Assembly (NCBI GenBank): GCA_001779195.1
Contig: MFJL01000041.1
Span: 16,881-80,880 of the forward strand
Length of the DNA stretch: 64,000 bases
From: Candidatus Gottesmanbacteria bacterium RIFCSPHIGHO2_02_FULL_39_11
Lineage (GTDB): Bacteria; Patescibacteriota; Microgenomatia; 2-02-FULL-39-11
Direction of reading: 5' to 3'
Shown here: piece by piece, positions 14,887 through 42,453 of the stretch
Numbering within the stretch: position 1 is the stretch's first letter
Layout of the letters: every line of letters starts with the position of its first letter
Notes under the pieces: generated by a model
Told to the model about the DNA's origin: nothing
Seen by the model: only the letters and a program-made list of their open reading frames with translations
The model's database searches: none
Position numbers and translations under genes: made by a program

Positions 14887-15225
14887 ATGAACCTTCATAT
14901 TGACACTACACACCATAATGGAATTTTTATAAAAGTCTCAGATTCTGAAAAAGAATATTCCTTAAAAAAAGAAACAACGTCATGGGCTTCTCAGATACTT
15001 CTTCCCGCAATTGAGGAGTTGTTAAAAGCTCACTGTTTAACTTTTAAGGATATTTCATCCGTTACAGTTGGAACCGGACCGGGATCATATACGGGAATTA
15101 GAGTCGGAATTGCAGTTGCCCAGACGATTGCCTGGATATTGGATATTCCCTTAAACGGAAAGAAAAATAATACAGTTTCTCCTGTGTATGGAGAGAATGA
15201 TAAGTTTGGAGAGTTAAATGGTTAA
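14887..15225 (+). CDS. tsaB: tRNA threonylcarbamoyladenosine biosynthesis protein TsaB (short form, 112 aa)
   Basis: VGTGPGSYTGIRVGIAVAQ matches the TsaB/YeaZ GPGSFTGxRIG motif. Truncated relative to the roughly 220 aa homologs. Confidence 0.65.
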   Translation: MNLHIDTTHHNGIFIKVSDSEKEYSLKKETTSWASQILLPAIEELLKAHCLTFKDISSVTVGTGPGSYTGIRVGIAVAQTIAWILDIPLNGKKNNTVSPVYGENDKFGELNG

Positions 15226-15237
15226 ATTGTTTTATTG

Positions 15238-16752
15238 TTATATGGTTGGAATATGCGGTCCGATCAGAGAAGAAGATTTTCTTTTAAAAATAGCACTGAC
15301 TCGGTCTTCATACAGCAGTTCCCATCTGTTTTCGTTTACTAATGCCAACATTCTTTTGTAGATAGGTTTATGTGTAGAAATGTAAACTGTATCATAGGGG
15401 GATTTATTAATATCCAGAATGTTCTGTTCCAGATAAAAATTATTTTCAAATGCGCTGTAGTCTTTATTATCTCTCCAGAAGGACATGCGTCCGTCAACTG
15501 AGGGTTTAATCTTGGGATAATTCCATATAAGCCATCCTCCCCAGTCATAAAAAGTATAGAGATTTTTATACGGAACTTTTTTTAAAAATTCAGCCGATGC
15601 AAATGAACAGCTTGTATATCTGCAGTAATTTTCCCAACTTAAATTTCTTATTCCATAGGGAGTTACTAGTTTTAGATAAAGTGAGTAGATAATAATTCCA
15701 GAAAAAACAAGAAAGTAAATGATTTTTATGGTTTTTTGTGAAATGACGGAGATAATATTATCCAGATATTTAATAATGGGAATGGATAATAAAAGAAGAG
15801 TCCATGTATATCTGCGGGCGCTAAATGAGAGGAAAAATATTAAAACAAGGGGTAGGATTTCAGGAAGATACTCTCTGAGTTTTTTATTCTTAAAAAGAAT
15901 AAAAATGGAAACTCCTATATAAAGCCCCCAGGAGAGAAGCCTCCACCAATAGATAGTATAGGCATCAAATGAGGTCCACTCGACGATATATTGAGAAAGA
16001 GGATTTCCGAAGTGGTGAAGGGCTTCTCCGTAGATAGATATTCCGAAGGGATTTATGAGAGTTACAAATACTGAAACTAATAACGCAAGTAAAGGTAATA
16101 AGTAATAAAAAATTTTGTGTTTAATATTGGAAAAATATGAAGATGCTGAAACTAGTTCAGCATGACGAGGCAGTAAATTAATTACCAGATAAAATATAGA
16201 CCAAAGAAAGAAAAGTCCTAGTCCTTGGATAAATCCTCCGTGAAAGTTGACCCAAATAAGGAAAAGAAGCGGGAGGAAAAAAAGATATTTGACACTCCCC
16301 TTTTTAAATTTGCTGAAAATTAAATAGGCACAGCAGGTAAACATCAGAGTGACCAGTTGCGCGCGGAATGAGACTTTATTAAGAAGCTCCATAAAGTAGA
16401 GAGTAAGAGGAAAGAGAAAACTCTTTTGCCACCAGGTAAGGGATGCCGATTTTGATATAAAAAAAAGCGTTCCCACAACCGTTAGTGCTCCCAAGAGGGA
16501 AACTCCTAAAAATCCAAGATCGCGATATGCAAAATATGTCACACTATCTGAAAGCCAGGAGTGGTTTATCCAATGATAAGAATTCATTTCAGAGGAAAAA
16601 ATATTGTCTCTTAATATTTTTCCGTGAGTAAAGAAGTATTCTCCGTACTTTAAGTGCCACCCCAGATCAGAATCTATAGGCTGATAGAGAGAAAAAAGAA
16701 AGACAGAAATGTAGGGGAGAATATTAAGAATAATAGGGAAAAGCCGTTTCAT
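15238..16752 (-). CDS. polytopic integral membrane protein, GT-C-like putative glycosyltransferase
   Basis: 504 aa with more than 10 predicted TM helices. Loop-1 acidic motif DSDLGWHLKYGEYF. Hydrophilic C-terminal domain. Confidence 0.45.
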   Translation of the reverse strand: MKRLFPIILNILPYISVFLFSLYQPIDSDLGWHLKYGEYFFTHGKILRDNIFSSEMNSYHWINHSWLSDSVTYFAYRDLGFLGVSLLGALTVVGTLFFISKSASLTWWQKSFLFPLTLYFMELLNKVSFRAQLVTLMFTCCAYLIFSKFKKGSVKYLFFLPLLFLIWVNFHGGFIQGLGLFFLWSIFYLVINLLPRHAELVSASSYFSNIKHKIFYYLLPLLALLVSVFVTLINPFGISIYGEALHHFGNPLSQYIVEWTSFDAYTIYWWRLLSWGLYIGVSIFILFKNKKLREYLPEILPLVLIFFLSFSARRYTWTLLLLSIPIIKYLDNIISVISQKTIKIIYFLVFSGIIIYSLYLKLVTPYGIRNLSWENYCRYTSCSFASAEFLKKVPYKNLYTFYDWGGWLIWNYPKIKPSVDGRMSFWRDNKDYSAFENNFYLEQNILDINKSPYDTVYISTHKPIYKRMLALVNENRWELLYEDRVSAIFKRKSSSLIGPHIPTI

Positions 16753-16864
16753 GGAAAGAGAGTATACAGGAAAAAATCCTAAAGTCCAAAGTATGTTTTA
16801 TAACTGCCTCTTGACACACGGTTAAAAAAATTCCTATAGTGATATAGATCATTAATAATTTCAT

Positions 16865-16917: not shown

Positions 16918-17215
16918 AAGTTTTTTGTGATTCATCTGCCCGATGAAGTTTTGTTGTCGACTATTGAATTTATAATGAAAATCTGCCCACTGCCCAATTC
17001 TGGCACTTTAGCCTTTTTTAAAAGGGAGAGTGTCTTTTTTTGTGCAGATCTTGTCGAGCTTGCGAGACATAGAGATGCATACCCTGAAAATTTTTTTAAA
17101 TTGCAAAGCAATTTGGAAAAATTTACACAGTAAATTTTTAAAAAATTTTTAGGGTAAGAAATACTGAGACTCACTTTGTTCGTCAAGTATTTCTAACGAA
17201 AGGAGGTGAAAATTT

Positions 17216-17815
17216 ATGAAAAAAAATATATTAGGAGTTATGTTGGGTACCGGTATGCTTTTTGTTTCTGTTCTTCCTGTATTTGCAGCAACTGACAGTT
17301 TCAACATAGCAACCGGATATCGCAGTACTAATAAAAGTAGGATTTTGAATAAAACCACAGCCGATGTTGATGTATTTAATCATGCACATGTGACAAATAA
17401 CATCACAACCAAAAGTGAGAGTGGTAAGAATGATCAAAATTACAACACGTTAGTTTTAGGAACCGGAATTGTTACAGATCCTGCGAGTTCTTCCACAACT
17501 CTAACCAATGGAGTCAATTCTACAGGAGTTTTGGTTGATCAAACCTCTCCTGAGTGCGGATGTGATTTATCTGCCGGAAATAGTTTAACCGGAGCTAAAT
17601 CTCACAATTATGCCAGTGTGAAAAATATTAAAGACGCGGATGTCACTGTTATAAACAGCGCATACGTTTCAAATACAGTATACACTGCTTCTGACACAGG
17701 ACATAACGACTCAAACGGCAATACAGTTGGCGGCAGTATCTCAACAGGCACAGCAACCTCAAGGACAAATGTGACAAATGATGTAAATACGACAACTGTT
17801 GTTGTAGCTCAATAA
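17216..17815 (+). CDS. secreted Asn/Thr/Gly-rich repeat protein (paralog family A, short member)
   Basis: Signal peptide. Repeat units such as TGHNDSNGNTVGGSISTGTATSRTNVTNDVNTTTVVV. Leader TTCTAACGAAAGGAGGTGAAAAT is identical to the one upstream of 19188. Confidence 0.7.
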   Translation: MKKNILGVMLGTGMLFVSVLPVFAATDSFNIATGYRSTNKSRILNKTTADVDVFNHAHVTNNITTKSESGKNDQNYNTLVLGTGIVTDPASSSTTLTNGVNSTGVLVDQTSPECGCDLSAGNSLTGAKSHNYASVKNIKDADVTVINSAYVSNTVYTASDTGHNDSNGNTVGGSISTGTATSRTNVTNDVNTTTVVVAQ

Positions 17816-17847
17816 TTCGTTTCATCAAGAAAGAAACGGGTTACAAA

Positions 17848-17881
17848 AAGGCGTGAGTATAAAAAACTTACGCCTTTTTTG
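17848..17881 (+). terminator. rho-independent terminator after the 17216 gene
   Basis: AAGGCGTGAGT-ATAAAAA-ACTTACGCCTT stem-loop followed by TTTTTT. Confidence 0.6.
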
Positions 17882-17992
17882 CGGCTAATATGCTCCGTAT
17901 GAATTAATTGATATAGTTTGTTATCTTGACATACATTAATTAGGATTGTAATATCGCTGTCACATTCATGAGTATTAATTAGCGCATTATAT

Positions 17993-18637
17993 ATGGATAA
18001 AAACGCAGCCGAAAATGATTTAAATTCTACTGGTGTTAATATAACCAAACCTGTGCACAAAAGAAGACTCTCTTTATTTTTAAAGGCATATAAAAAATTT
18101 TTAATAGTAATTGTTATAGTAATAATAGGACTATTTCTTATTTCAAAAATTTCAACCCCCAAAAATTCCACCAATTCACCTTCTTCTGTTCGTTCGGTTA
18201 CTACAAGAGTTGATAGAAGCTATGACTTTAGTGCATTAAATAATCAGGGGAAGCCAATTCCGACGACTACTGCGAGTCCCAGCCGGATAAAGCTCACCAT
18301 TACCAATGCTGAAAAAACAAGCCAGGTGCTGGTAGGTGATAAAACATTCAGCGCTAAAAACAATAAATTGTTTTTAATTCTAAATTTGGAACTTAGAAAC
18401 GACAGAGCAACTCCTGCAAATATCATTCCGGGCGATCTTATTCGTATGACATACGGAGGTGATGAGAGCCGCAAATTTGCGCCTGACCTTCATAATAATT
18501 TGGTGCCTGTGGCTGCTATATCAACCAAAATTGATCGGGTGGGTTTTGTAGTACCGGATAATGAAAAGATGTTTAAAATATACATAGGAGAATTGGAAGG
18601 AAAGAAAGATATTGTCACAATAGCATTTGGGTCTTGA
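17993..18637 (+). CDS. hypothetical membrane-anchored protein (N-terminal TM, extracytoplasmic domain)
   Basis: ORF with the TM segment FLIVIVIVIIGLFLI. No family recognised. Confidence 0.4.
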   Translation: MDKNAAENDLNSTGVNITKPVHKRRLSLFLKAYKKFLIVIVIVIIGLFLISKISTPKNSTNSPSSVRSVTTRVDRSYDFSALNNQGKPIPTTTASPSRIKLTITNAEKTSQVLVGDKTFSAKNNKLFLILNLELRNDRATPANIIPGDLIRMTYGGDESRKFAPDLHNNLVPVAAISTKIDRVGFVVPDNEKMFKIYIGELEGKKDIVTIAFGS

Positions 18638-18753
18638 CAATATATTTTAAAATTAGTTATAGTGAAATGAGACTGCCTCGTTTTGTTTATGCGTTAACTT
18701 CTGCCCCCGCATAAATTAATCATATTTTCTGTCCAAATTTATATTTAAAATAT

Positions 18754-18930
18754 AATGGCTGATTACCAGTCATCTATGAATACTCAACTTCTTCTTGATG
18801 AGCTGAAAAAAGCTTTGGCAAATGTACGTCCCTACGGATCTATCGAAATTATTGTACAAAATAATCAAATCACCCAGATAACAGCACGAAATATAAGGAA
18901 GACAACAGGAATTGCAATTGACCAGTTATA
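18754..18930 (+). CDS. small YezD/DUF2292-like protein (58 aa, below the ORF-track cutoff)
   Basis: Translation MADYQSSMNTQLLLDELKKALANVRPYGSIEIIVQNNQITQITARNIRKTTG. The GS.EI.VQ(N/D).....I pattern resembles the YezD family. Confidence 0.4.
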
Positions 18931-19007
18931 GAAAAAACGTTCTTCGTTTTTCGTGATTCGTATTTCGTTAGGACGAAGAACGAACAACGATAAACGAATA
19001 ACGGCAT

Positions 19008-19070
19008 AAAATTTGTTGCTGACCGCAAGCGGAGGCAAGAATCTTTATAAAAAGATTCTTGCCTTTTTTT
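19008..19070 (+). terminator. conserved box TTGCTGACCGCAAGCGGAGGCAAGAATC embedded in a rho-independent terminator
   Basis: GGCAAGAATCTTT-ATAAA-AAGATTCTTGCC followed by TTTTTTT. The 5' box is shared with 16865-16890. Confidence 0.55.
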
Positions 19071-19187
19071 GTGGGAGGAGAATAAAAAAATCATTCTTCG
19101 ATTATAAGAGGACGTAAGAATTTGTATTTCCTCATTAAATAATTCGAAAACAAATTCTAACGAAAGGAGGTGAAAATAATTAAATAT

Positions 19188-20387
19188 ATGAAAAAATTCG
19201 CAACAATAGTTGGAACTGCTGCTCTTTTTGGAGCCGCAATGCTTCCAGCTTTAGCAACAGGTAATAACTGTTCAAACGATACCACCGGTCCTTTCTCAAA
19301 CAACACATGTACAGTAAACAACACAAGTAATGTGCAAGTGAGTAACTACAATGACGCTAAAATAACAAATGATGTTGAATCAAACGTCAATACCGGGCAC
19401 AATAGCGCAAGCTATAACACTCTCGGAGGTGATATCGTCACAGGAAACGCTACTTCTAATACCGTCGTATCAACCGTTGCCAATATTAATACTACTAACG
19501 TAGTAGGTGGTGCAGCAGCAGGTCCAAACACCGGCTCAAACCACATTACTGGTCCCGGTTCTATATGGGGAGGAAGTGACGGAAACAATGCAGTATATAT
19601 CAACAATGACCAAAACGTTAACGTTGATAATCAAAACACCGCCGTCGTTTATAACGACGTCGATGCATCTTCCAACACTGGATATAACAGAGCTAAAGCT
19701 AACACTGGTCCTGCATTTATCAAAAGCGGTAATGGAGTACTCGGCGTAACCGTCGGGACCCACGTCAATGATAACTGGACACAGGTTACAACTGGAGCTG
19801 GTTCAACTGGAGGAAATACAGCAGGAAACAGTATCACCGGACCTTTCTCAGACAATATCGTCACATTAAATAACAGCAGCGATATCAGTGTAAGAAATTA
19901 CAATGATATGTTCGTTAAAAATGATGTTGACGCAAGTGTTGAGACCGGAGATAACAAAGCTTCTTACAACACTCTCGGAGGCGACATCGTCACCGGGGGC
20001 GCACGTGGGATAGTTGGAGTAAATACAGAAGGAAATATAAATACTACTTCTGTACAACAAGCTCTAGGAGGATTTGCCAACAACGGCAATAACTCAACCA
20101 CCGGACCTGGATCAGAAAATAATACCTATGTTAACAACGATCAGATCATAAGTGTAGACAACGCAAATAATAAGTGTTGGTCTCATAATGCTGACAGTAT
20201 TAATTGGGGTAGAAATTGCTATCCGTGGGATCTAGGGGTCGAAAATTTTGTTGACGCATCTTCCGAAACCGGAGACAATCGAGCCAACGGTAATACCGCT
20301 GGTGGATTTGTCAACGCAACTTTGGCAGATTTGTGGCAGAGTGTCGTGACTCATATCAACGATACTATGACTACAGTCACACAGTAA
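19188..20387 (+). CDS. secreted Asn/Thr/Gly-rich repeat protein (paralog family A)
   Basis: The track start 19170 is a GTG inside the Shine-Dalgarno sequence; the real ATG is at 19188. Signal peptide. Repeats TGHNSASYNTLGGDIVTGNATSN and ETGDNKASYNTLGGDIVTGGARG. Conserved leader. Confidence 0.7.
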   Translation: MKKFATIVGTAALFGAAMLPALATGNNCSNDTTGPFSNNTCTVNNTSNVQVSNYNDAKITNDVESNVNTGHNSASYNTLGGDIVTGNATSNTVVSTVANINTTNVVGGAAAGPNTGSNHITGPGSIWGGSDGNNAVYINNDQNVNVDNQNTAVVYNDVDASSNTGYNRAKANTGPAFIKSGNGVLGVTVGTHVNDNWTQVTTGAGSTGGNTAGNSITGPFSDNIVTLNNSSDISVRNYNDMFVKNDVDASVETGDNKASYNTLGGDIVTGGARGIVGVNTEGNINTTSVQQALGGFANNGNNSTTGPGSENNTYVNNDQIISVDNANNKCWSHNADSINWGRNCYPWDLGVENFVDASSETGDNRANGNTAGGFVNATLADLWQSVVTHINDTMTTVTQ

Positions 20388-20479
20388 CCGTTTTCTTTCT
20401 TGGCAGGCCCCGACTATCAAGTCGAGGGCCTCCAAGAAGGAACGAGATTAACAAAAGCTCAAAGCTAAAAGTTTAAAAA

Positions 20480-22846
20480 ATGACGACAAAATCACCCATA
20501 AATAAATTACACAGACTTATTAGCAGTTTTCTTATTGCTATTCTTCTTTTTGAAAGAATGTTTTCTTTTACTACCCTTTCTGCATATGCGGATGATCCCT
20601 CACCGACAAGTGCTCCTCAAGAACAGAATGCTCCGCCTCCGCCTCCGTCAGTACCGACAGCTCCTCCTCCGGCTCCTACTGTGCCTCCGGTAGATGCAGT
20701 ACCCACCGTTCCTCCTCCGGGCGGATCAGATGAACCTCCTTCCAATCAGTCTCCTCCGGTTCCAACATCAGCACCTACTGGTGAGGCCCAACCGACTATT
20801 TCTCCTAATGATCCGGTTCCGACTATTGTACCGGTAGGATATGTATCTCCGACGGGTAATCCTACTACTACTACATCGAGCGGAGCCTTGGCGGATTCAA
20901 TGGCAACGGGCGATGCGCAAGAAGGGAACGGAAGTACCTACTCGAAAGACGAATCCGTAAACGATCCAGCCAATACCAATACCGGTGCTTTTTCACAAAA
21001 TCAGGCAACAGAAGATCTAAATAAAAATTTAGAACAGGTTTCTAAAAACCTGGCAGATCTTAATAATAAAATTAATCAGTTATCCAATACCGGATTTAAT
21101 GTAGCAACCCTTAATACATTATCCGGAAATGTTTTTACGGGAGATGCCAATGCCTCAACAAATCTTTTTAACAAACTAAACAGCAATGTCACGGGTGAGG
21201 GAGGATTTGTCACTCAAAATATATACGGAAATCAGAGCGGGGACATCGTATTTCAACTAGCTGAGAGTAGTGCAACTGGAACATTTGACAGTGTCAGTCC
21301 AACAGTTACCAAAAATGCAACAACGGGAGCGGAATCTGACAATACTGCTACAACTAGCAACGGATTTACCGTCAAAGAAGCAAACGGAAATGACGCAACG
21401 ATAAATAATGATATAACTTTAAATGCCATTTCCGGAGAAAATAAAGCAGTATTAAATACCGGAAACGGTGTTGTAAAAACAGGAGATGCAAATGCACTCG
21501 CAAATATAATTAACCTTGCCAACACCAATCTGAATGTAGCAGAGTGGCTTTTCGGAGTAATTAATATTTATGGCACCCTAACCGGGAATATTATACTTCC
21601 CGATGGAACATCTGTTCTTGCCTCATCAATTACATCAAATTCACCTGTTTCAACCACAAGTAATTCACAAACCGGAGCCGGATCTGACAACACAGCTGTC
21701 TACCAAACTTCAGATACGTCCGAATTTAAAAACGTAAATACGGCAACGGTGGCAACCAATGTTGATGTAACCTCCAATACCGGAAATAACGCCAGTAACG
21801 GAAATACAAGTGGAGGAAGTGTAACCACCGGGGATGCAAATTCAGATGTAAACAGTACAACTGTTGCCAATACAAATGTAGATGATCCTGAGGGAACCGT
21901 ATGGATTGTCATGGTAAACGAGTTGGGGAAATGGATAGGAAAAATTATCGGAGCGCCATCTGAGGCTACCACGGCATCAAGTCTTCCCGCAACTATAACA
22001 ACTGGAGGAGAAGGACAGGCAACATATACCGACAGCACAACTAATTCACAAACCGGTGCAGGGTCATCAAATGACGCGCAAAATTCACAAAGTGCTAAAG
22101 AGACAACAGAGAACACAAACACTGCAGATATTAAGAATAACATAACCGTAAATGCAGATTCCGGAAACAATGCCGCAAACTACAATACCGGGGCAGGAAT
22201 AGTTGAAACCGGGGATGCAAATGCGGGAGTAAATATATTAAATCTTTCAAACCTTAACGTAAAAGCCAAGAAAGTAGTGGTGTTATTTATAAACGTCTTG
22301 GGAGATTTTATAGGAAACGTGGTAACTCCCGGACAGCCGAATGAACACGTAATAGCTGATAATTCTCAGCCGCAGACTACACCTACTCCTGATACAAGGA
22401 TTGGGGGTGCTGTATCTTCTGATCCGACACCAACTCCCACTGATGAGGTTGCAGTAAATTATGTTATTAACCAAACTGTTGTGAATATAAATCCGGTACA
22501 GACGGTTGTCAGTTACCTTACAAACAGCACGGATCAAACCGGAGAAGAGGCGTATGGAAATTCAGGCAGGATATTTACATATGCAACGGACGCTATCTAC
22601 TTTGCTGAGGTAAACCCGAATATTATTCCTACCAAGTCGCCACTTCGGGGCGTGTATCTTTCCCCTTCTTTTCTGAAAGCAACCGAGTCCACCCTCCCTG
22701 GTATGCTTCTGGGGGGAGTGTCTCTGAAAGTAAATGAACGATGGCTTTCTGTACTTCCGGTTGCAGTACTCTTGGTTATCTTAAGACGCAGACGAAAAAT
22801 CGACTTTTCAAAATATCTAAACATGCTTTTTGACATTGTACTGTAA
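20480..22846 (+). CDS. large secreted surface protein: Pro-rich N-terminal region plus the family-A repeat domain, C-terminal hydrophobic segment and RRRRK tail
   Basis: Signal peptide. PPPPSVPTAPPPAPTVPP region. Repeats NTGNGVVKTGDANALANIINLANTNLNV recurring about four times. C-terminal LPVAVLLVILRRRRK. Confidence 0.7.
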   Translation: MTTKSPINKLHRLISSFLIAILLFERMFSFTTLSAYADDPSPTSAPQEQNAPPPPPSVPTAPPPAPTVPPVDAVPTVPPPGGSDEPPSNQSPPVPTSAPTGEAQPTISPNDPVPTIVPVGYVSPTGNPTTTTSSGALADSMATGDAQEGNGSTYSKDESVNDPANTNTGAFSQNQATEDLNKNLEQVSKNLADLNNKINQLSNTGFNVATLNTLSGNVFTGDANASTNLFNKLNSNVTGEGGFVTQNIYGNQSGDIVFQLAESSATGTFDSVSPTVTKNATTGAESDNTATTSNGFTVKEANGNDATINNDITLNAISGENKAVLNTGNGVVKTGDANALANIINLANTNLNVAEWLFGVINIYGTLTGNIILPDGTSVLASSITSNSPVSTTSNSQTGAGSDNTAVYQTSDTSEFKNVNTATVATNVDVTSNTGNNASNGNTSGGSVTTGDANSDVNSTTVANTNVDDPEGTVWIVMVNELGKWIGKIIGAPSEATTASSLPATITTGGEGQATYTDSTTNSQTGAGSSNDAQNSQSAKETTENTNTADIKNNITVNADSGNNAANYNTGAGIVETGDANAGVNILNLSNLNVKAKKVVVLFINVLGDFIGNVVTPGQPNEHVIADNSQPQTTPTPDTRIGGAVSSDPTPTPTDEVAVNYVINQTVVNINPVQTVVSYLTNSTDQTGEEAYGNSGRIFTYATDAIYFAEVNPNIIPTKSPLRGVYLSPSFLKATESTLPGMLLGGVSLKVNERWLSVLPVAVLLVILRRRRKIDFSKYLNMLFDIVL

Positions 22847-22901: not shown

Positions 22902-23381
22902 ATGAAAAAAATAATTGCAGTTCTATCTGCATTCTTTTTATTTTTCTTCTTCTGGGGACTTTTTACTCAAACTGTGTCACAAACAGAAGCTGACTGGTGG
23001 GTGCGTCCGACTGAACGGGAAGCACAGCCCACACGTGAGCCGCGGGTTAGTTTGGCACCCCGGACTCCCAGTCCTACTGATTCTCCTACACCCAAGCCTA
23101 CAGGCAGTTCTCCGTCCGACCAGAATCCCTGTGCGCCGGGACAATCATTTACCGGTACCAACTGCGGATGGTCACCGGGAATTTCTGAATACAAACATGA
23201 TCCGGAAGGAAGCAGTAGCCAGGCAGTCGGATATGGAATCGGAGGACCGGATGTACTAGGACTTTCCTATACGGGAAGCGTGAGTTCAAATAAGATTAGC
23301 AGTTCTGATGTAATCTTTCTCTTAGGAGTTCTATGTCTACTCGTATACACAAAGTCAAAACTCAGGGCAAAGATAAGGTAA
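22902..23381 (+). CDS. small secreted Pro-rich protein with a C-terminal sortase-type sorting signal (LSYTG + hydrophobic + basic tail)
   Basis: Signal peptide. C-terminal GLSYTGSVSSNKISSSDVIFLLGVLCLLVYTKSKLRAKIR. Overlaps the sortase gene start. Confidence 0.55.
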   Translation: MKKIIAVLSAFFLFFFFWGLFTQTVSQTEADWWVRPTEREAQPTREPRVSLAPRTPSPTDSPTPKPTGSSPSDQNPCAPGQSFTGTNCGWSPGISEYKHDPEGSSSQAVGYGIGGPDVLGLSYTGSVSSNKISSSDVIFLLGVLCLLVYTKSKLRAKIR

Positions 23382-23971
23382 AAAAAGCCCGCCTGACCTT
23401 TTTAATTATAGGAATTGTACTTCTTGTTCTGGGATTTTTGATACAAAATAGTTCTTTTATTTTTTCAAAACCTCGCGCCATCGTAGCCAAGTCAAATGGT
23501 TATACGCCTCTCTTATCCTATAATCCGGTCAAAATAGACCCTCTTTTTATCCAGTCTCAGACTTTGCCAAAGTTAATTCGGGATATTCCTACAAAAATTA
23601 TTATTCCCTCAGTTGGGATTGATGTAGGAGTTAAAAAAGCAAAAATTATAAACGGTTACTGGGAAGTTTTTGAAGATACTGCCGGATGGGGAGAAGGATC
23701 AGCTGCACCCGATGAAGCAGGAAACGTTGTAATGTTTGCTCACGCACGGGAAGGGTTATTTTTACCCCTTAGAAACGTAAAATCAGGGCAAAAAGTTTAT
23801 ATTCTGACTGGTAATATATTTTATACGTATGAAATTAAAGAGGTTCAGGAAGTAAATCCGACAGATACGGAGGTTATTAAACCGACACAAGATGCAATTT
23901 TAACCCTGTATACTTGTTCGGGATTTGCAGACAGCAAAAGGCTTATCGTAAAGGCAAAAAAGATTATCTGA
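23333..23971 (+). CDS. sortase family transpeptidase
   Basis: N-terminal TM anchor. His in MFAHAREG. Catalytic Cys in the LTLYTCSG motif (TLxTC). Confidence 0.75.
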   Translation: MSTRIHKVKTQGKDKVKKARLTFLIIGIVLLVLGFLIQNSSFIFSKPRAIVAKSNGYTPLLSYNPVKIDPLFIQSQTLPKLIRDIPTKIIIPSVGIDVGVKKAKIINGYWEVFEDTAGWGEGSAAPDEAGNVVMFAHAREGLFLPLRNVKSGQKVYILTGNIFYTYEIKEVQEVNPTDTEVIKPTQDAILTLYTCSGFADSKRLIVKAKKII

Positions 23972-24189: not shown

Positions 24190-25068
24190 ATGAACCGGTT
24201 TATTTTTCCTATCCAGCATTATTTTTTTCCGCATCATTCAAACAACTACAAGGCAAAATCGCTCCATCTTTCTTCTTTGCTTTTTTATGTCGCTTTGCTT
24301 CTTCTGGTACAGTTTACTGTCAAAACATTTAGAAAAGATTATCCTGAGATTTTGGGATACGCAAAAGATGTAAATATTAACAGGATATTAACCCTCGTTA
24401 ATCAAAAGAGACAGGAGGCGGGACTTTCTCCCCTTGCTCTCTCACCGCTTCTAACAACATCAGCAACCAATAAGGGGAATGATATGTTTGGCAATAATTA
24501 CTGGGCTCATATATCTCCCTCCGGCAAAACTCCGTGGGAGTTTATAAGGGAGACAGGATATGATTATGACTATGCCGGGGAGAATTTAGCTAAAAGCTTT
24601 GATAGTTCAGATCAGGTGGTTGATGCCTGGATGAATTCTCCGACACATCGGACAAATCTACTTAAACCTGAGTATACCGAGATGGGACTTGCTGTTATCA
24701 ACGGCAAGCTTCTGGGTGAGGAGACAACTCTTGTAGTTCAGGAATTCGGAACACGAACTTTATCTGATACCGTTGCCCAAATTACACCTGAGGCGATTGT
24801 GCCTACACAAGCGGTTGCAGTTGTCCTGCCTCCGAACAGCTTCTCCGCAACGACCATTAATACGGTTCCAAAAGTTGTCGTCTATACTCCTCTTAAGTCA
24901 ATCTCCATCCTCACAGCCGAGTTTCTCCTAGTCGTTCTTTTCTTAGACGGGATTTATATGTGGAAATTTAAGCCTCATAGGCTTTCTTCACGGACTCTTG
25001 CCCATATTATATTTATAGGTGCTTTAATTGGTGCAATGGGAGCAACCGGAATAGGAGCCATACTATGA
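24190..25068 (+). CDS. CAP/SCP/PR1-like domain protein (YkwD-like) with C-terminal TM segments
   Basis: HISPSGKTPWEF, GENLAKSF and VVDAWMNSPTHRTNLLKPEYTEMGLAV are typical CAP-domain blocks. Confidence 0.7.
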   Translation: MNRFIFPIQHYFFPHHSNNYKAKSLHLSSLLFYVALLLLVQFTVKTFRKDYPEILGYAKDVNINRILTLVNQKRQEAGLSPLALSPLLTTSATNKGNDMFGNNYWAHISPSGKTPWEFIRETGYDYDYAGENLAKSFDSSDQVVDAWMNSPTHRTNLLKPEYTEMGLAVINGKLLGEETTLVVQEFGTRTLSDTVAQITPEAIVPTQAVAVVLPPNSFSATTINTVPKVVVYTPLKSISILTAEFLLVVLFLDGIYMWKFKPHRLSSRTLAHIIFIGALIGAMGATGIGAIL

Positions 25069-25438: not shown

Positions 25439-26173
25439 ATGAAAGGTGTAATTTTAGCTGGGGGACTTGCAACCCGACTTTATCCGCTTACTTACGCTAC
25501 AAACAAGCATCTTCTGCCAATTTTTGATCGGCCGATGATTTTTTATCCTATAAACACTCTGGTTAAAGCAGGAATTACGGAGGTTCTTATTGTGACAAGC
25601 GGTCCTCATGCGGGTCATTTTTTACGGGTCTTAAAAAACGGGAAAGAGTTAGGAGTTACGCACCTTGAGTATGCATATCAGGAAAGGGCAAACGGAGGTA
25701 TTGCCGATGCTCTAAAACTTGCTGAGGATTTTGCGGATAACGACCCCATCACCGTAATTTTAGGAGATAACACAACGGATGCGGATATAAAAAAAAGCGT
25801 TGATAATTTTAAAGACGGGGCCTTAATTTTCCTGAAAAAAATTGAGAATAAAAAAGAACTGTCACGCTTTGGAGTTCCCGAATTTGGAGAGCCGGATAAG
25901 TCAAAAGTAATTTCGCTTGAAGAAAAACCAAAAAATCCTAAGAGCAAATTTGCAGTGTGCGGGTTGTATATGTATGACAAACATGTTTTTGATCTCATAC
26001 GTAAATGCACGCCCTCAGCCCGGGATGAGCTTGAAATTACGGATGTAAATAATTTGTATATTAAAGAGGGCAAACTCTCCTGGGAAGAATTAAAAGGATT
26101 TTGGTCTGATACCGGTACATTTGATACGCTTTATGCAGCAAATAAATATTGGGCAAAGAAAGCGGGGATATGA
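25439..26173 (+). CDS. rmlA: glucose-1-phosphate thymidylyltransferase-like sugar nucleotidyltransferase (short form)
   Basis: MKGVILAGGLATRLYPLTYATNKHLLPI N-terminal signature. First gene of an rml-type block. Confidence 0.75.
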   Translation: MKGVILAGGLATRLYPLTYATNKHLLPIFDRPMIFYPINTLVKAGITEVLIVTSGPHAGHFLRVLKNGKELGVTHLEYAYQERANGGIADALKLAEDFADNDPITVILGDNTTDADIKKSVDNFKDGALIFLKKIENKKELSRFGVPEFGEPDKSKVISLEEKPKNPKSKFAVCGLYMYDKHVFDLIRKCTPSARDELEITDVNNLYIKEGKLSWEELKGFWSDTGTFDTLYAANKYWAKKAGI

Positions 26174-27162
26174 AACTTCTGGTTACAGGCGGTGCCGGTT
26201 TTATAGGAAGCAATTTTATCCTCTACTGGATTTCTCACTATCCGAATGATGCGATCGTTAACCTGGATAAATTGACGTACGCGGGAAATTTAGAAAACCT
26301 CAAAAGTATTGAAAAAAATCAAAATTATACGTTTATCCGGGGGGATATTTGTGACTGCGATGTTGTTGAAAAAGCGATGCAGGGAGTTGATACGATTGTC
26401 CATTTTGCGGCTGAGAGCCATGTGGACCGGTCAATTACAGAACCAAGTGATTTTATCAAAACAAATATCACCGGTACTTATACTCTTTTGGAATCTGCAT
26501 TAAAAAACCATGTTAAACGCTTCCACCATATCTCAACAGATGAAGTATTCGGATCTTTAGAATTAGATTCCCTGGAAAAATTTGATGAAAATACCCCTTA
26601 TGATCCGAGCTCTCCATACTCAGCATCAAAAGCATCATCTGATCATTTAGTAAGAGCGTATTTTAGAACGTATCAATTGCCTATTACCATTTCAAACTGC
26701 TCAAATAACTTTGGCCCTTTTCAGTATCCTGAAAAATTGATTCCCCTTACCATTACCAATTTGATGGAGGGTAAGAAAGTGCCGGTATACGGAGACGGGA
26801 AAAACGTAAGGGACTGGTTATATGTAGAGGATCACTGCCGGGCAATTGACCTTATTTTGCAAAAAGGAAAAGTCGGGGAGACATACACAATCGGAGGAAT
26901 GACACAGGATGTTTCAAATATCGAAATTGTCGGAAAAATAATAACCCTTATGGATGAGGATAAGGGTAAAATTGAATTTGTCACAGACAGAAAAGGACAT
27001 GACAGAAGGTATGCAGTAGACTGGAAAAAAATTGAGGGTGAACTGGGATGGAAACCCGTTTCCGATTTTGACACATGGCTTGCCAAAACTATTGATTGGT
27101 ACAGAAAAAACGAAAATTGGTGGCAACCACTTAAAAATCAAAAATGGATAAATCAATCTTGA
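26170..27162 (+). CDS. rmlB: dTDP-glucose 4,6-dehydratase
   Basis: ATGA overlap with the rmlA stop. MKLLVTGGAGFIGSNF. YSASKASSDHLVRAY (YxxxK). Confidence 0.8.
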   Translation: MKLLVTGGAGFIGSNFILYWISHYPNDAIVNLDKLTYAGNLENLKSIEKNQNYTFIRGDICDCDVVEKAMQGVDTIVHFAAESHVDRSITEPSDFIKTNITGTYTLLESALKNHVKRFHHISTDEVFGSLELDSLEKFDENTPYDPSSPYSASKASSDHLVRAYFRTYQLPITISNCSNNFGPFQYPEKLIPLTITNLMEGKKVPVYGDGKNVRDWLYVEDHCRAIDLILQKGKVGETYTIGGMTQDVSNIEIVGKIITLMDEDKGKIEFVTDRKGHDRRYAVDWKKIEGELGWKPVSDFDTWLAKTIDWYRKNENWWQPLKNQKWINQS

Positions 27163-28013
27163 CAACCGGTTTTAACGGGATGGTGGGGTCCCGTTTCTTG
27201 GAGCTATTTCCGGATTATACCGTTCTCAATCTCGGTAAATCGGATGGAGTTGATATCACCGATTATGAAAAAATCATTAACTATTTTGAAGAGTCAAAAG
27301 CTCCTACGGTTGTCCATATGGCCGGAAAAACGGATGTTGATTCCTGTGAGGATGATAAATTGTTTGGGGAGGGTGGCGAAGCATGGAGAGTAAATGTGGA
27401 AGGTACTCGAAATATTGTCAAAGCCTCTCAAAAAACAGGGAAACGTCTCATCTATATCTCAACAGACTTTGTTTTTAACGGAACAAAAGATTTTTATACA
27501 GAAGAAGACGTACCTGATCCGGTGAACTGGTACGGATACACAAAATACGAAGGAGAGCTCTCTGTCGCATCATCCGGAATTGGCTATTCTATTTTGCGCA
27601 TATCATATCCGTACCGGGCGTATTATCCGAAGAAAAAAGACTTTGTCAGAAGAATTTTGGAAAAAATGACGAACAAGGAAAAAATTTACGCTCTTTCTGA
27701 TCATATATACACTCCCACCTTTATTGACGATATCGCACAGGGTATCAACCTGTTTCTGGAAAAAAACATAGAGGGAACCTATCACTTAGTAGGAAGGGAA
27801 AGTTTATCGGTTATAGAGGGAATAACCACAATTGGGGGTGTGTTTGGTCTAAATCCACAGCTTGTTCCCATTACCCGGGAACAGTACTTTAAAGACCGGG
27901 CATACCGTCCATTTAAGTTGGGACTTAAAAGTGATAAAATAAGAAATCTTGATTTAAAGATGAATTCATTTAGCGAGGGGCTGGAAAAAGTTAAAAAACA
28001 GTTATCCATTTAA
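27144..28013 (+). CDS. rmlD: dTDP-4-dehydrorhamnose reductase-like NAD(P)-dependent oxidoreductase
   Basis: ILTTGFNGMVGSRF Rossmann motif, YGYTKYEGE (YxxxK). About 290 aa. Follows rmlB. Confidence 0.7.
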   Translation: MDKSILTTGFNGMVGSRFLELFPDYTVLNLGKSDGVDITDYEKIINYFEESKAPTVVHMAGKTDVDSCEDDKLFGEGGEAWRVNVEGTRNIVKASQKTGKRLIYISTDFVFNGTKDFYTEEDVPDPVNWYGYTKYEGELSVASSGIGYSILRISYPYRAYYPKKKDFVRRILEKMTNKEKIYALSDHIYTPTFIDDIAQGINLFLEKNIEGTYHLVGRESLSVIEGITTIGGVFGLNPQLVPITREQYFKDRAYRPFKLGLKSDKIRNLDLKMNSFSEGLEKVKKQLSI

Positions 28014-28018
28014 AATAT

Positions 28019-29314
28019 ATGAAAATAGGTTTTATCGGACACGGATACGTGGGACTGGTTACTGCTTCTGTATTTGCGGATTTAGGAAATACTGTTTATG
28101 TTGCCGGCAGAACAAAGGAAAAAATTGAGAAACTCAAAAAAGGAATAAGCCCTTTTTATGAGCCGGGACTGGATGAAATGGTTAAAAGAAACGTAAATGC
28201 CGGGCGTATTAAATTTACTCTGGATATTTCCGAAGTTGTAAAATCCTCTAAAATTATTTTTATTTGCGTCGGGACTCCTCCTAAGGAGACGGGTGAGGCT
28301 GATCTTTCATCCGTTTTTAAAGTAGCGGAGGATATCGGAAAGTCACTGGATCACTATGCCGTTATCGTAACCAAAAGTACGGTTCCGGTTGGCACAAATA
28401 GAAAAGTAGCTGAAATTTTAAGAAAAAATCTAAAGCCGGGAGTAAGTTTTGATATTGCCTCCTGTCCTGAATTTCTGCGGGAAGGAACCGCAATTTCAGA
28501 TACAACCAGTCCCGATAGAATTGTAATAGGCAGCGATTCTTCCAAAGCTCGGGATTTGCTTCTGGATCTTCACAAAGCGATTCCGGGGCATAGGATTACC
28601 TCGACAATTGAAACTGCAGAAATGATTAAATATGCATCCAACTCCCTTCTTGCAACCAAAATTTCGTTTGCCAATGCGATGTCATTTCTCTGTGATGCAG
28701 TTCATGCGGATGTGGAAGCAGTTCTGGATGGAATGGGACTGGATAAACGCTTAGGCCGCCAGTTTTTATATCCGGGAGTAGGATTTGGAGGAAGCTGTTT
28801 TCCTAAAGATGTCAAAGCACTTGTTGCCATTGCCCGAGAGCACGGGTACGACTTTGAGCTTTTACGTGCAGTTAACCACATCAATACCTATGCCAAGAAA
28901 AAATTTGTGGATACTATCATTGAAAAGCTTGGTGGAGTTAAAGGAAAAACGATTGGAATTTGGGGCCTTTCTTTTAAAGCCAACACGGATGATATGAGAG
29001 AAGCATCCAGTATCGACATTATAAACGGACTTTTGGAGAAGGGCGCTAAAATAAAAGCATTTGATCCAATTGCGACTGAAACGGCCAAAAAAGTGCTTCC
29101 CGAAAAAGTGCAGTTTTGTTCAAGTCCCACTGAGGCTGCCAAAGATGTAGATGGGCTTGCCCTTATCACCGAGTGGAACGAATTTAAACAAATCGATTTA
29201 TCTGAAGTAAAAAAAGTAATGAAGGGGAATTTTATTTTTGACGGACGAAACATATATGATCCGGAAAAAGTTAAAGCTCTTGGATTTAATTATAAAGGAA
29301 TTGGAAGGGAATAA
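28019..29314 (+). CDS. ugd: UDP-glucose 6-dehydrogenase family protein
   Basis: MKIGFIGHGYVGLVTA. Catalytic GFGGSCFPKDV. Confidence 0.85.
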   Translation: MKIGFIGHGYVGLVTASVFADLGNTVYVAGRTKEKIEKLKKGISPFYEPGLDEMVKRNVNAGRIKFTLDISEVVKSSKIIFICVGTPPKETGEADLSSVFKVAEDIGKSLDHYAVIVTKSTVPVGTNRKVAEILRKNLKPGVSFDIASCPEFLREGTAISDTTSPDRIVIGSDSSKARDLLLDLHKAIPGHRITSTIETAEMIKYASNSLLATKISFANAMSFLCDAVHADVEAVLDGMGLDKRLGRQFLYPGVGFGGSCFPKDVKALVAIAREHGYDFELLRAVNHINTYAKKKFVDTIIEKLGGVKGKTIGIWGLSFKANTDDMREASSIDIINGLLEKGAKIKAFDPIATETAKKVLPEKVQFCSSPTEAAKDVDGLALITEWNEFKQIDLSEVKKVMKGNFIFDGRNIYDPEKVKALGFNYKGIGRE

Positions 29315-29316
29315 TC

Positions 29317-30300
29317 ATGAAAGATGATCCTATTATGAAACAAAATAAAAAAATTGCACTTATTACCGGAATTACCGGATTTGCGGGAAGCCATCTGGCT
29401 GAACTTCTATTAAAAGAGGATGTAGAAGTGCACGGCATTCAGAGATGGAGAAGTAAAAGCGATAATATTGAAGCTATAAAAGATAAAATTCAGTTTCATG
29501 AAGCAGATTTGCTCGATGCTCATTCGCTCTATACGGTGATTGATGAGGTAAAACCGAACTATATCTTCCATCTGGCAGCCCAGTCCTATGTACAGTCTTC
29601 ATGGGCATCTCCTTCCAATACGCTGGAAGTTAACATTATCGGCACGGTCCATCTATTTGAAGCCGTTCGAAAAAGCGGACTTCCTCTTGCTATCCAAATT
29701 GCGTGCAGTAGCGAAGAATACGGAAAAGTGATGCCTGATGAAGTTCCCATTTCAGAGGGTAATCCTTTGCGTCCTCTTTCTCCCTACGCAGTTTCCAAAC
29801 TTGCAATGGATTATTTGGGCTATCAGTATTTTGAAAGCTACGGAATTAAAATAATCAGGACCCGGGGATTTAATCATACCGGTCCAAGGCGGGGCGATGT
29901 TTTTGCTGAATCGACATTTGCCAAACAGATTGCGGAAATTGAAAAAGGAAAGAAAGAGCCGGTTGTGTATGTAGGAAATCTGGATGCAAAGCGTGATTAT
30001 ACCGATGTTCGGGATATGGTGCGGGCATATTATTTATCGGTTGAAAAATGCAAACCCGGAGAAGTATATAATATTGCAACCGGAAAAGCGTGGAAAATTG
30101 GAGAAGTGCTAAATCTGCTTTTATCGAAAAGCCTCGTTAAAATAGCAATTAAAGAAGATCCGACACGTATGCGTCCCTCGGATGTTGAAGTGCTTGTGGG
30201 GGATTCAACCAAATTCAGAAACGCAACCGGTTGGAAGCCGGTTATTCCTTTTGAAAAAACAATGGAAGATCTTCTTAATTATTGGAGAGAGAAGGTATAA
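29317..30300 (+). CDS. NAD-dependent sugar-nucleotide dehydratase, GDP-mannose 4,6-dehydratase-like
   Basis: ALITGITGFAGSHLAE, YAVSKLAMDY, RGFNHTGPRRG (compare GMD FNHESPRRG). Confidence 0.6.
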   Translation: MKDDPIMKQNKKIALITGITGFAGSHLAELLLKEDVEVHGIQRWRSKSDNIEAIKDKIQFHEADLLDAHSLYTVIDEVKPNYIFHLAAQSYVQSSWASPSNTLEVNIIGTVHLFEAVRKSGLPLAIQIACSSEEYGKVMPDEVPISEGNPLRPLSPYAVSKLAMDYLGYQYFESYGIKIIRTRGFNHTGPRRGDVFAESTFAKQIAEIEKGKKEPVVYVGNLDAKRDYTDVRDMVRAYYLSVEKCKPGEVYNIATGKAWKIGEVLNLLLSKSLVKIAIKEDPTRMRPSDVEVLVGDSTKFRNATGWKPVIPFEKTMEDLLNYWREKV

Positions 30301-30413
30301 TAATTATCCAATTAACCAATTTCTAATTATCCAATTAACCAAAAAAACATTTGTTTAATTTTAAATTGGTTTATTGGGTAATTGGTATTTATTGGATAAT
30401 TGGATAATTATCA
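30301..30413. repeat. complex AT-rich palindrome: two direct TAATTATCCAATTAACCAA units facing inverted TTGGATAATTGGATAATTA units
   Basis: The direct 19-mer occurs at 30301 and 30325. Its reverse complement occurs as 3-4 degenerate copies at 30367-30413. It directly abuts the uxs start. Confidence 0.55.
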
Positions 30414-30414
30414 A

Positions 30415-31380
30415 ATGAATACCTTACCTATTTCTATCGTTACTGGAGGAGCTGGATTTATAGGCTCTAACTTGTGTTCAGAGCTTTTAAGGCGCGGGCA
30501 TTTTGTATACTGTGTCGATAATCTTATAACCGGAAGTGAGAAGAATATAAAACCGCTTCTTTTAAATCCCAACTTTGCGTTTTTAAAGCATGATGTTATA
30601 AATCCACTTCCGGACTCCTTTAAAAAAAAACTTAACCCCCCCTTATTTATTTTTCATTTAGCATCTCCTGCATCTCCTCCTAAATATAAAAAATGGTCTA
30701 TAGAAACCATGCGCGTCAATTCCGTAGGAACGTATAATATGCTCAATTTAGCAAGCGATTATCTGTACTCCCGGTTTTTGCTGGCTTCAACTTCTGAGGT
30801 TTACGGAAATCCGGAGGTGCATCCCCAGAAGGAAAACTACAACGGAAACGTAAATCCCCTTGGTACCAGAGCTTGTTACGATGAAAGCAAAAGATTTGCG
30901 GAAAGTCTGACCATGGAATTTTTAAGAAAGAAAAATACGGCAGTCCGCATTGTCAGAATTTTTAATACATACGGGCCGAACATGGAGAAAAGTGACGGGA
31001 GAGTAGTTTCAAATTTTATTAATCAGGCACTTTCCGGACAGAGTTTAACCCTATATGGGGACGGTTCTCAGACACGGTCTTTGTGCTATGTCTCTGATTT
31101 AGTAGAAGGAATTATTAAGATGATCCAGAAAGATAATATTAATGGGGAAGTAATTAATTTAGGAAATCCGAATGAAATGAAAGTCCGCGAAATTGCTGAA
31201 ATAATATTAAAACTTACCAAGTCAAATTCCCAAATCATTAAATCAGGTGAGAAAGATGCAGATGATCCAAAGAGGAGAAAACCTGATATTTCAAAAGCAA
31301 AAAAGATATTAGGATGGGAACCGCATGTCAGCGTGGAGGAAGGACTGCTAAAAACAATTGAGTATTTTAAGAATATATGA
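30415..31380 (+). CDS. UDP-glucuronate decarboxylase (UDP-xylose synthase)
   Basis: GGAGFIGSNLCSELL. LLASTSEVYGNPEVHPQKENYNGNVNPLGTRACYDESKRFAE is near-invariant in UXS/ArnA-decarboxylase enzymes. The track start 30400 is a TTG inside the palindrome; ATG is at 30415. Confidence 0.8.
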   Translation: MNTLPISIVTGGAGFIGSNLCSELLRRGHFVYCVDNLITGSEKNIKPLLLNPNFAFLKHDVINPLPDSFKKKLNPPLFIFHLASPASPPKYKKWSIETMRVNSVGTYNMLNLASDYLYSRFLLASTSEVYGNPEVHPQKENYNGNVNPLGTRACYDESKRFAESLTMEFLRKKNTAVRIVRIFNTYGPNMEKSDGRVVSNFINQALSGQSLTLYGDGSQTRSLCYVSDLVEGIIKMIQKDNINGEVINLGNPNEMKVREIAEIILKLTKSNSQIIKSGEKDADDPKRRKPDISKAKKILGWEPHVSVEEGLLKTIEYFKNI

Positions 31381-34033: not shown

Positions 34034-34794
34034 GAAAAATAGAACTTAGTATTATTGTTCCCTGTTATAACGAGGAAAGAAATATCCGTCTGGGAGTTCT
34101 GGACCATATAGATGCCTATTTAAGAAAAGTAAAATATTCATATGAAGTTATTATTGTTGATGATGGATCAACAGATGAAACTCTTCACTTACTTACCGAT
34201 TTTATTTCCGAACATCCGAAATTTAAGGTTATTAAATCCCGTCACGGAGGAAAAGCACTGGCGGTTATTTCAGGAATGAATGAGGGAAAGGGAGATTATC
34301 TTCTTTTTTGCGATATGGATCAGGCTACCCCTCTTCCGGAATGGGAGAAACTGCATCCGTTTTTCGAGAAGAATTATGATGTAGTAATCGGCTCCCGAAG
34401 AGATATCCGGCAAGGGGCACCGCGGTTTCGCGTAATCATGGCAAAGGGTTTTATGATATTAAGAAACATTATTCTAGACTTAGGGATCACAGATACCCAG
34501 TGTGGTTTTAAGGCATTTAAGAGTGATGCTGCAAGAACTATACTCAATCGGCTGGTTTATTATAAAGGGGAGAGAAGCGTGAGGGGCTCAACGGTAACTG
34601 CTGGATTTGATGTAGAACTTCTTTTTATCGCAAAAGAGTTAGGGTATAAGATTAGTGAGGTACCGATTGACTGGCATTATCAGGAGACGAGACGCGTAAG
34701 TCCCGTTAAGGATTCTTTAGAGGGGTTTGCCGCTCTTCTTCGGATAAAATTTAACAGTCTGAGGGGGTATTATAGTAAAAAAACTCAGATCTAA
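34030..34794 (+). CDS. GT2 polyprenyl-phosphate glycosyltransferase (DPM1/GtrB-like)
   Basis: IIVPCYNEERNI, VDDGSTDET, FCDMDQATP. Confidence 0.8.
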   Translation: MRKIELSIIVPCYNEERNIRLGVLDHIDAYLRKVKYSYEVIIVDDGSTDETLHLLTDFISEHPKFKVIKSRHGGKALAVISGMNEGKGDYLLFCDMDQATPLPEWEKLHPFFEKNYDVVIGSRRDIRQGAPRFRVIMAKGFMILRNIILDLGITDTQCGFKAFKSDAARTILNRLVYYKGERSVRGSTVTAGFDVELLFIAKELGYKISEVPIDWHYQETRRVSPVKDSLEGFAALLRIKFNSLRGYYSKKTQI

Positions 34795-34841
34795 TCGGCT
34801 CCCGACTAAATAGGGAGCGGAAAGATGGGTATATAAAGTAA

Positions 34842-35993: not shown

Positions 35994-35995
35994 CT

Positions 35996-39108: not shown

Positions 39109-39111
39109 CGT

Positions 39112-40611: not shown

Positions 40612-40666
40612 ATGTGTTATTTTCTGAGCATCGGTATAAATAAGAATGCTCCGTATATAAAAAATA

Positions 40667-41410: not shown

Positions 41411-41416
41411 TTTTTT

Positions 41417-42448: not shown

Positions 42449-42453
42449 TTCAT

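Follow-up and report, generated by a model that had tools for sequence, protein, structure and literature searches.

Predicted beta-solenoid surface proteins in a conserved, sortase-containing gene cluster of a Gottesmanbacteria genome

We analysed 64,000 nt of the genome of Candidatus Gottesmanbacteria bacterium RIFCSPHIGHO2_02_FULL_39_11 (MFJL01000041.1, positions 16,881-80,880, forward strand; referred to here as the window). Gottesmanbacteria are uncultured groundwater Microgenomates inside the candidate phyla radiation (CPR). The locus of interest encodes three secreted, repeat-containing proteins, designated A199, B399 and C788, together with a small Pro-rich protein (D159), a sortase and several accessory features (Table 1). 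B399 and C788 are 100% identical to the NCBI entries A3D77_07005 and A3D77_07010, respectively. All three proteins are annotated in databases as hypothetical only, and no relevant paper on their family was found in the CPR literature.

Table 1 Features of the locus, with positions in the window (aa, amino acids; ORF, open reading frame; AF2, AlphaFold2; SD, Shine-Dalgarno sequence; TM, transmembrane; dG, folding free energy).
Feature	Position	Strand	Description	Basis
Mem504	15238..16752	-	Polytopic membrane protein, 504 aa, divergent, upstream of A199	ORF
Leader copy 1	17191..17213	+	TTCTAACGAAAGGAGGTGAAAAT, SD 8 nt before A199 ATG	Exact match
A199	17216..17815	+	Secreted paralog, 199 aa, 2 modules, anchor-less	ORF, BLASTP, profile
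X214	17993..18637	+	N-terminal membrane anchor and DUF4352-like (Ig-like) ectodomain, 214 aa	ORF, Pfam
DUF2292 ORF	18755..18931	+	YezD-like, 58 aa, between X214 and B399	Pfam PF10055, E 1.5e-7, above cutoff
Terminator-like hairpin	19031..19066	+	Intrinsic-terminator-like, 16-bp stem then TTTTTGT	Promoter/terminator scan
Leader copy 2	19155..19177	+	TTCTAACGAAAGGAGGTGAAAAT, SD 15 nt before B399 ATG	Exact match
B399	19188..20387	+	Secreted, 399 aa, 4 modules, predicted beta-solenoid	ORF, profile
Post-B stem-loop	20389..20444	+	Directly 3' of B399 stop codon, no U-tract	dG -38.8 kcal/mol, z -6.9
C788	20480..22846	+	Membrane-anchored paralog, 788 aa, 4 predicted solenoid modules	ORF, profile, AF2
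D159	22902..23381	+	Small secreted Pro-rich protein, 159 aa, candidate sortase substrate	ORF, family alignment
Sortase	23333..23971	+	N-terminal TM segment, TLYTC active-site motif	Pfam PF04203, E 5.8e-23

Three paralogous proteins, their module and its predicted fold

A199, B399 and C788 are linked pairwise by BLASTP (E 1e-9 to 1e-11). A hidden Markov model (HMM) built from 35 B399 orthologs and run against all six-frame ORFs of the window matched these three proteins only (B399 at 8e-167, C788 at 7e-38 in four separate matches, and A199 at 1e-32). The paralogy claimed in a preliminary description of this DNA, made from the sequence alone, is thus borne out, as is the reported richness in Asn, Thr, Ser and Gly, with Asn contents of 11.6-17.5% and Thr contents of 12-15.6%. 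The start codon of B399 was assigned to the ATG at 19188 because its orthologs all begin with MKK at that position; the GTG at 19170, taken as the start by the ORF lister, falls within the Shine-Dalgarno (SD) sequence of the gene. The signal peptides of the three proteins were assigned by eye from AxA sites.

The shared module is 90-125 residues long and has the core [ST]-x-T-G-x-N-x-A-x-x-N-T-x-G-G-x-[IV]-x-T-G-x-A ... N-x-N-T-T. It occurs twice in A199 and four times each in B399 and C788. A motif scan placed it at residues 70 and 162 of A199, at 70, 165 and 254 of B399, and at 205, 319, 435 and 562 of C788, and the fourth copy of B399 (residue 362) was placed by eye. A199 aligns to profile positions 3-190, corresponding to modules 1-2 of B399, and the profile matches of C788 cover residues 157-240, 279-352, 392-468 and 499-596. 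Only one GG-containing turn (NTLGGDIVTG) per 90-residue module can be read directly from the sequence. Autocorrelation peaks lie at 89-95 residues in A199 and B399 and at 114-127 residues in C788. The repeat motif of the preliminary description is therefore real and forms the core of a longer unit, and the period of about 35 residues given there does not hold. We define the proteins carrying this module as the CPR 'NTGxNxAxxNTxGG' beta-solenoid module family, to which A199, B399 and C788 all belong.

The three proteins differ at their C-termini. A199 and B399 end in soluble sequence, and neither the ORFs nor Pfam and NCBIfam scans revealed an anchor or a wall-binding domain. In C788 a signal peptide and a disordered Pro-rich N-terminal region precede the four modules, every one of which has an additional hydrophobic insert. 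The modules are followed by a Pro/Thr linker, a juxtamembrane segment that is conserved, a TM helix (residues 753-770), the basic stretch RRRRK and a short cytoplasmic helix. The C-terminal block RGxFLSPAFAKATETSFAGMLLGGAxxKVNxSWLSIIPLA...RRRRKxxFxKYLNALLEIIL is strongly conserved among the orthologs, and more distant relatives retain (K/R)INLAWL where the TM segment starts. The Pro-rich region, the hydrophobic anchor and the RRRRK stretch following it had been recognized correctly. The main Pro-rich part is N-terminal (approximately residues 38-130) and far from the anchor, which is preceded by the second, Pro/Thr linker at about residues 640-690. RRRRK is not the end of the protein, since a conserved 15-residue tail, IDFSKYLNMLFDIVL, follows it. 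C788 was also considered as a sortase substrate and ruled out, having no conserved LPxTG-like motif and carrying this conserved tail after the basic stretch.

The amino-acid identity between A199 and B399 is about 31% (BLASTP), and A and B have separate orthologs in other Gottesmanbacteria. The duplication that gave rise to them is thus ancient and predates the Gottesmanbacteria, contrary to the recent duplication that had been proposed for the two genes sharing a leader.

With a 35-sequence alignment, AlphaFold2 gave an all-beta model of B399 with a predicted local distance difference test (pLDDT) score of 78.5 and a predicted template modelling (pTM) score of 0.69; the confidence dips at three module junctions. 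For C788 (50 sequences), the four module cores were modelled at pLDDT 80-97, and the Pro-rich stretches 33-160 and 625-750 appeared as disordered regions below pLDDT 50; the TM helix and the short C-terminal helix were also predicted in this model. The modules of A199, B399 and C788 are predicted to be narrow beta-solenoid rods with Asn/Thr/Gly ladders, in line with the beta-solenoid that had been expected. A Foldseek comparison of the predicted structure returned no significant match, and the structural comparison of C788 gave the same classes with lower Z. The conservation profile of the B family has periods of 2 and 89-95 residues and a weak signal at 42-47, and the period of 2 agrees with beta-strands. 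A rung of 18 residues was looked for. The autocorrelation of B399 has weak peaks at 18 and 9, and the family conservation profile lacks this period; the sequence offers a weak suggestion at most of an 18-residue register in the solenoid.

Single-sequence and profile searches of Pfam (E<=1), NCBIfam and the PDB found no match for the three proteins or the family profiles. Relatives of the proteins themselves are widespread in related genomes, as the preliminary description had proposed to examine. B399 has at least 148, mostly full-length (370-427 residues) and 43-75% identical, and C788 has at least 125, in Gottesman-, Ames-, Woyke-, Levy- and Roizmanbacteria. An exhaustive profile search yielded 2,777 cluster representatives at E<=1e-3, of which 1,459 reach E<=1e-10; the best 150 of the 2,777 matches are 137-1,183 residues long with 1-7 matched stretches. 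The named members all belong to the CPR (Gottesman-, Curtiss-, Ames-, Woyke-, Levy-, Roizman- and Berkelbacteria, CPR2 and Parcubacteria), a range based in part on a genome scan with a 9-sequence alignment and a narrow peptide pattern, which limits any conclusion on absence outside the CPR. With a solenoid predicted and homologs this widespread, the picture is probably not one of disordered low-complexity sequence that has no repeating fold and no homologs elsewhere.

Distant C-type relatives carry, in place of the TM anchor, a C-terminal type I dockerin, or DUF11 together with a peptidoglycan-binding domain (PG_binding_1). Because the anchors are swapped in this way, the module array is best regarded as a displayed extracellular passenger on interchangeable envelope anchors. 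The relatives ending in a type I dockerin include the CPR proteins P0181, P0192 and P0204; these ends would imply cohesin-dockerin surface display in CPR bacteria.

Gene order, sorting signal and expression signals of the cluster

The loci of relatives used for synteny comparison with the window are designated L001, L002 and so on, and genes of the X214, A199, B399, C788 and D159 types are abbreviated to X, A, B, C and D. The order in other genomes is an opposite-strand gene for a polytopic membrane protein, X, sometimes DUF2292, B, C, D and the sortase gene; the position of A within the cluster varies between genomes. X-B-C-D-sortase is present in every Gottesmanbacteria locus that extends far enough. 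X-B-C occurs in other Microgenomates, among them Amesbacteria and Woykebacteria, and is accompanied by a sortase in some; Berkelbacteria and CPR2 have B-C. The X gene, found in synteny in L001-L019, L022 and L023 (26-62% identity), always lies just upstream of B across the Microgenomates, and nine of the 14 members of its family match DUF4352 (best E 1.6e-5). A DUF2292 gene for 54 residues occupies the equivalent place in L002.

B and X encode the best-conserved proteins of the neighbourhood, with X orthologs (45-62%) as highly identical as those of B. In L002 and L003 the identity of B is 53-56%, compared with 40-47% for C, the sortase and Mem504; in other loci the orthologs of A199 and C788 are 29-42% and 40-46% identical, respectively. 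The cluster is set among core chromosomal genes (FtsX, PcsB-like, TsaE/TsaD) and not in a mobile island.

The C-terminus of D159 has the three parts of a sorting signal (LGLSYTG, a hydrophobic segment and KSKLRAKIR), and no other genuine ORF of the window ends in this way. A199, B399 and C788 lack the combination of LPxTG-like motif, hydrophobic segment and basic tail. The alignment of the D159 family shows the ending LGLSxT[GSA], a hydrophobic segment and R/K-S-K, a classical tripartite signal with a variant motif. The orthologs have a signal peptide, the mature N-terminus ADWWxRPxxRPTQP and a Pro-rich stretch, and most contain a Cys pair in PCAxGKSYxGPYCGW. The sortase scored 50.2 bits against the NCBIfam model TIGR01076 (sortase_fam; cutoff 39.35), and all its scores against class-specific NCBIfam models were below cutoff. 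The D159 and sortase genes overlap by 49 nt; D is directly followed by the sortase gene in 15 loci, and the overlap is present in L001 and L002 and absent in L003. The D159 family and its unclassed sortase represent a candidate new sortase-motif pair for CPR bacteria.

The identical 23-nt leader that had been reported before two of the genes, TTCTAACGAAAGGAGGTGAAAAT, is present in exactly two copies in the window, with none further at <=3 mismatches and a chance expectation of none. It consists mostly of a perfect 12-nt SD sequence. Within the 64 kb, the perfect sequence AAGGAGGTGA precedes A199 and B399 (at 19164) and is found nowhere else. GAAAGGAGGTGA is complementary to the usual Gram-positive-type 16S 3' end (the 16S gene lies outside the window). 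In two further Gottesmanbacteria genomes, GAAAGGAGGTGAAAA is likewise present before the orthologs of A, B and D, and the extended form reads (G)AAAGGAGGTGAAAA in L002 and GGAAGGAGGTGAA in L003. Most of the 23-nt identity is therefore attributable to a selected extended SD sequence. The suggestion of high expression of A199 and B399 is plausible in view of the two perfect sites. The TTCTAAC part of the leader is the 3' arm of a weak hairpin in both genes; these hairpins are not significant (z -1.6 and -1.1), and an Rfam scan of the window gave no match.

The terminator-like hairpin separates the DUF2292 ORF from B399, so that B399 probably has its own promoter. A strong promoter-like site, TTGACA-18-TATAGT at 18634-18663, precedes the DUF2292 ORF, and a promoter-like site matching at 11/12 positions with the same hexamers (TTGACA-18-TATAGT) lies at 16811-16840, some 375 nt before A199 begins. 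Between 16753 and 17215 (460 nt) there is no convincing ORF, and this stretch may be a long 5' untranslated region.

Directly after B, a stem-loop is kept in 12 Gottesmanbacteria loci (11212-11263 in L002, 11260-11319 in L003, and equivalents in L006-L015). Its consensus has 18 pairs, eight with compensatory changes, and the loop is ATCCTAGGA in most copies; in the window the hairpin is kept and its sequence has diverged. No Rfam family matched this element, a candidate attenuator or 3' stabiliser through which B would reach a level well above that of C. Conservation of this kind is what one would expect for production of B in excess of C.

Other neighbours of the cluster were also inspected. 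Mem504 is syntenic at 40-43% identity in L001-L006, L009, L014 and L015. It has no Pfam match at E<=1 and belongs to a large CPR family whose 391 homologs are all named 'hypothetical' without Pfam domains. Its link to the surface-protein cluster is uncertain. An early 'IDSDLGWH' loop in Mem504 resembles those of GT-C glycosyltransferases, which makes it at most a tentative GT-C candidate given the absent Pfam match and the unnamed homologs. A gene for a CAP/SCP-domain protein (24190-25068; PF00188, E 1.4e-18) with hydrophobic C-terminal segments follows the sortase gene; in several other loci of Gottesmanbacteria and Amesbacteria its counterpart (44-55% identity) also comes after the sortase gene, at a distance of a few kb. 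The TsaD/Kae1-like ORF at 14887-15225 encodes only 112 residues; similarly short versions of 102-104 residues with Pfam TsaD matches are conserved at the equivalent place in L001-L004, and these short proteins may be a truncated TsaB-like partner.

A proposed cell-envelope structure and alternative explanations

The cell-surface role advanced in the preliminary description is consistent with the presence of signal peptides, a membrane anchor and a neighbouring sortase, and with the relatives that have dockerin or peptidoglycan-binding anchors. The three proteins are probably a cell-surface structure rather than random low-complexity sequence. With a probability of roughly one half, we regard A199, B399 and C788 as components of one conserved Microgenomates cell-envelope structure, either a surface coat or a fibril.

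From the paralogy, conservation, synteny, predicted fold and sorting signal described above, we infer the following for abundance, assembly and the role of each part. A199, B399 and C788 would be exported by Sec and their signal peptides removed. The C-terminal helix of C788 would fix this protein in the cytoplasmic membrane, and its Pro/Thr-rich linkers would carry the four modules outwards through the wall. B399 is probably made in large excess, since its ribosome-binding site is the strongest of the window, the gene probably has a promoter region to itself, and the conserved stem-loop follows it. Since it is devoid of any anchor, B399 may be retained outside the cell through binding to the homologous C788 modules, thereby building the coat or fibril. 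A199, of half the length, could speculatively be a minor, capping or initiating subunit, and X214, D159 and the dedicated sortase would act as accessory factors of wall attachment or assembly.

Several points weigh against this proposal. The AlphaFold2 models of B399 scored 78.5, 69.6, 61.2, 54.5 and 35.5, and only the best is confident. The roles assigned to X214, D159 and A199 are drawn from synteny alone. Secreted B399 might also leave the cell altogether and enter the medium.

A more specific form of the envelope-structure proposal is a functional amyloid or curli-like fibre, in which B399 would be stacked head to tail by beta-sheet augmentation into cross-beta fibrils, with C788 as the nucleator, in the role of CsgB or of a long chaplin, and A199 as a minor subunit. 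The predicted fold of the modules, a beta-solenoid of stacked strand-arc-strand repeats, is the structure that characterizes curlin. The curlin repeat PF07012 (S-x5-Q-x-G-x-G-N-x-A-x3-Q) had no Pfam match at E<=1 in the three proteins or in 50 C-family members, and an hhalign comparison of the B-family profile with Escherichia coli CsgA gave a probability of 0.2%. We consider such a fibre possible but rather doubtful. Equally tentative is the broader idea that X-B-C-D-sortase builds an undescribed CPR extracellular polymer, a curli-like cross-beta fibre or sheath of B399-type subunits that would be nucleated on C788, tied to the wall via the sortase-linked Pro-rich protein, and an independently arisen functional amyloid of ultra-small bacteria with a single membrane. 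Such a polymer would possibly account for the surface layer or the fibrils observed on ultra-small cells from groundwater.

Alternatively, in line with the host attachment considered in the preliminary description, the proteins could be independent monomeric beta-solenoid adhesins with which the episymbiont binds a host cell or substrate, without joint assembly. While their predicted fold and export are compatible with this, A199 and B399 have neither an anchor nor a wall-binding domain, and stoichiometric co-production is suggested by the strict order of X, B and C together with the stem-loop kept after B. Host-range adhesins usually vary, whereas B is the best-conserved gene locally and has a fixed length and module number, which favours a structural role of B399 over that of a host-range adhesin. 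We regard independent adhesins as unlikely, and the conservation and fixed length of B399 make a role in host attachment less likely.

The preliminary description had also pointed to a large glycosylation cluster nearby, and this cluster is real. Over about 19 kb (25439-44387) it encodes RmlA/B/D, several epimerases and a UDP-glucose dehydrogenase, together with four enzymes of the GT2 type, one of them fused to GtrA, and four large membrane proteins of about 500 residues (two PMT_2 and two PTPS_related). N-x-S/T sequons are not enriched in the three proteins, at 7, 16 and 13 versus 6.0, 13.6 and 19.3 expected from composition; O-glycosylation by the PMT-like enzymes is possible. Rml genes follow the surface-protein cluster in the window and in L001 and L002, and they do not in L003 and L004, so that the linkage is not conserved. 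A glycosylated S-layer-type coat, with B399 as a glycoprotein modified by the neighbouring cluster and arranged in a two-dimensional lattice, is the least probable of these readings, given the sequon counts, the non-conserved Rml linkage and the lack of any SLH, CWB2 or comparable anchoring domain among Pfam and NCBIfam matches, and the glycosylation genes could serve wall polysaccharides instead.

Microgenomates and other uncultured CPR bacteria depend on surface contact for their lifestyle, although very little is known of their cell envelope. The cluster is a concrete and testable candidate for a major envelope component. Its protein family is very large, has no Pfam or NCBIfam model and has a confidently predicted fold; its gene order is fixed, and its dedicated sortase is paired with a candidate substrate whose motif, LSxTG, is non-canonical. 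Should the subunits polymerise, a curli-like fibre would have arisen independently. Even without polymerisation, the family merits naming and a domain model of its own, and annotation of CPR surface proteomes can make use of the sortase motif.

Comparison with known surface systems

In curli of Gram-negative bacteria, CsgA is the major subunit and CsgB the cell-bound nucleator. The curlin repeat has 23 ± 5 residues compared with about 90 for the module described here, and the cell-bound member is CsgB in curli and the transmembrane C788 in the present cluster, where polymerisation is hypothetical. Secretion genes of the CsgG/E/F type were absent among the cluster and neighbouring ORFs scanned, and they are not expected in a single-membrane cell.

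The chaplins of Streptomyces, a wall-bearing single-membrane cell, include the short secreted ChpD-H and the long sortase-anchored ChpA-C. Like the cluster here, they combine short anchor-less secreted paralogs, a long cell-anchored paralog and a sortase. Their hydrophobic domain of about 40 residues is unrelated to the module in sequence and composition. In addition, the long chaplins carry an LAxTG signal, whereas C788 has a TM anchor and the sortase substrate is a separate protein, D159.

RTX beta-roll proteins such as Caulobacter RsaA and the antifreeze protein MpAFP use type I secretion, in contrast to the Sec signal peptides of the present proteins; no GGxGxD nonapeptide and no Pfam HemolysinCabind match (PF00353) was found in the three proteins or the C family. 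Sortase-anchored beta-solenoid adhesins of Gram-positive bacteria, such as the binding region of the serine-rich repeat protein (SRRP) of Limosilactobacillus (L.) reuteri, likewise have a solenoid passenger, a single-membrane surface and a sortase nearby. In the SRRP type the LPxTG motif lies on the solenoid protein itself, whereas here the solenoid proteins lack LPxTG and only D159 has LSxTG; serine-rich repeat regions and an accessory Sec system were absent among the cluster and neighbouring ORFs scanned. As a kind of system, beta-solenoid surface proteins encoded close to a sortase are familiar. What is undescribed is the module family with its module of about 90 residues, the cluster with its fixed order X-B-C-D-sortase, the substrate with the LSxTG motif and the stem-loop after B.

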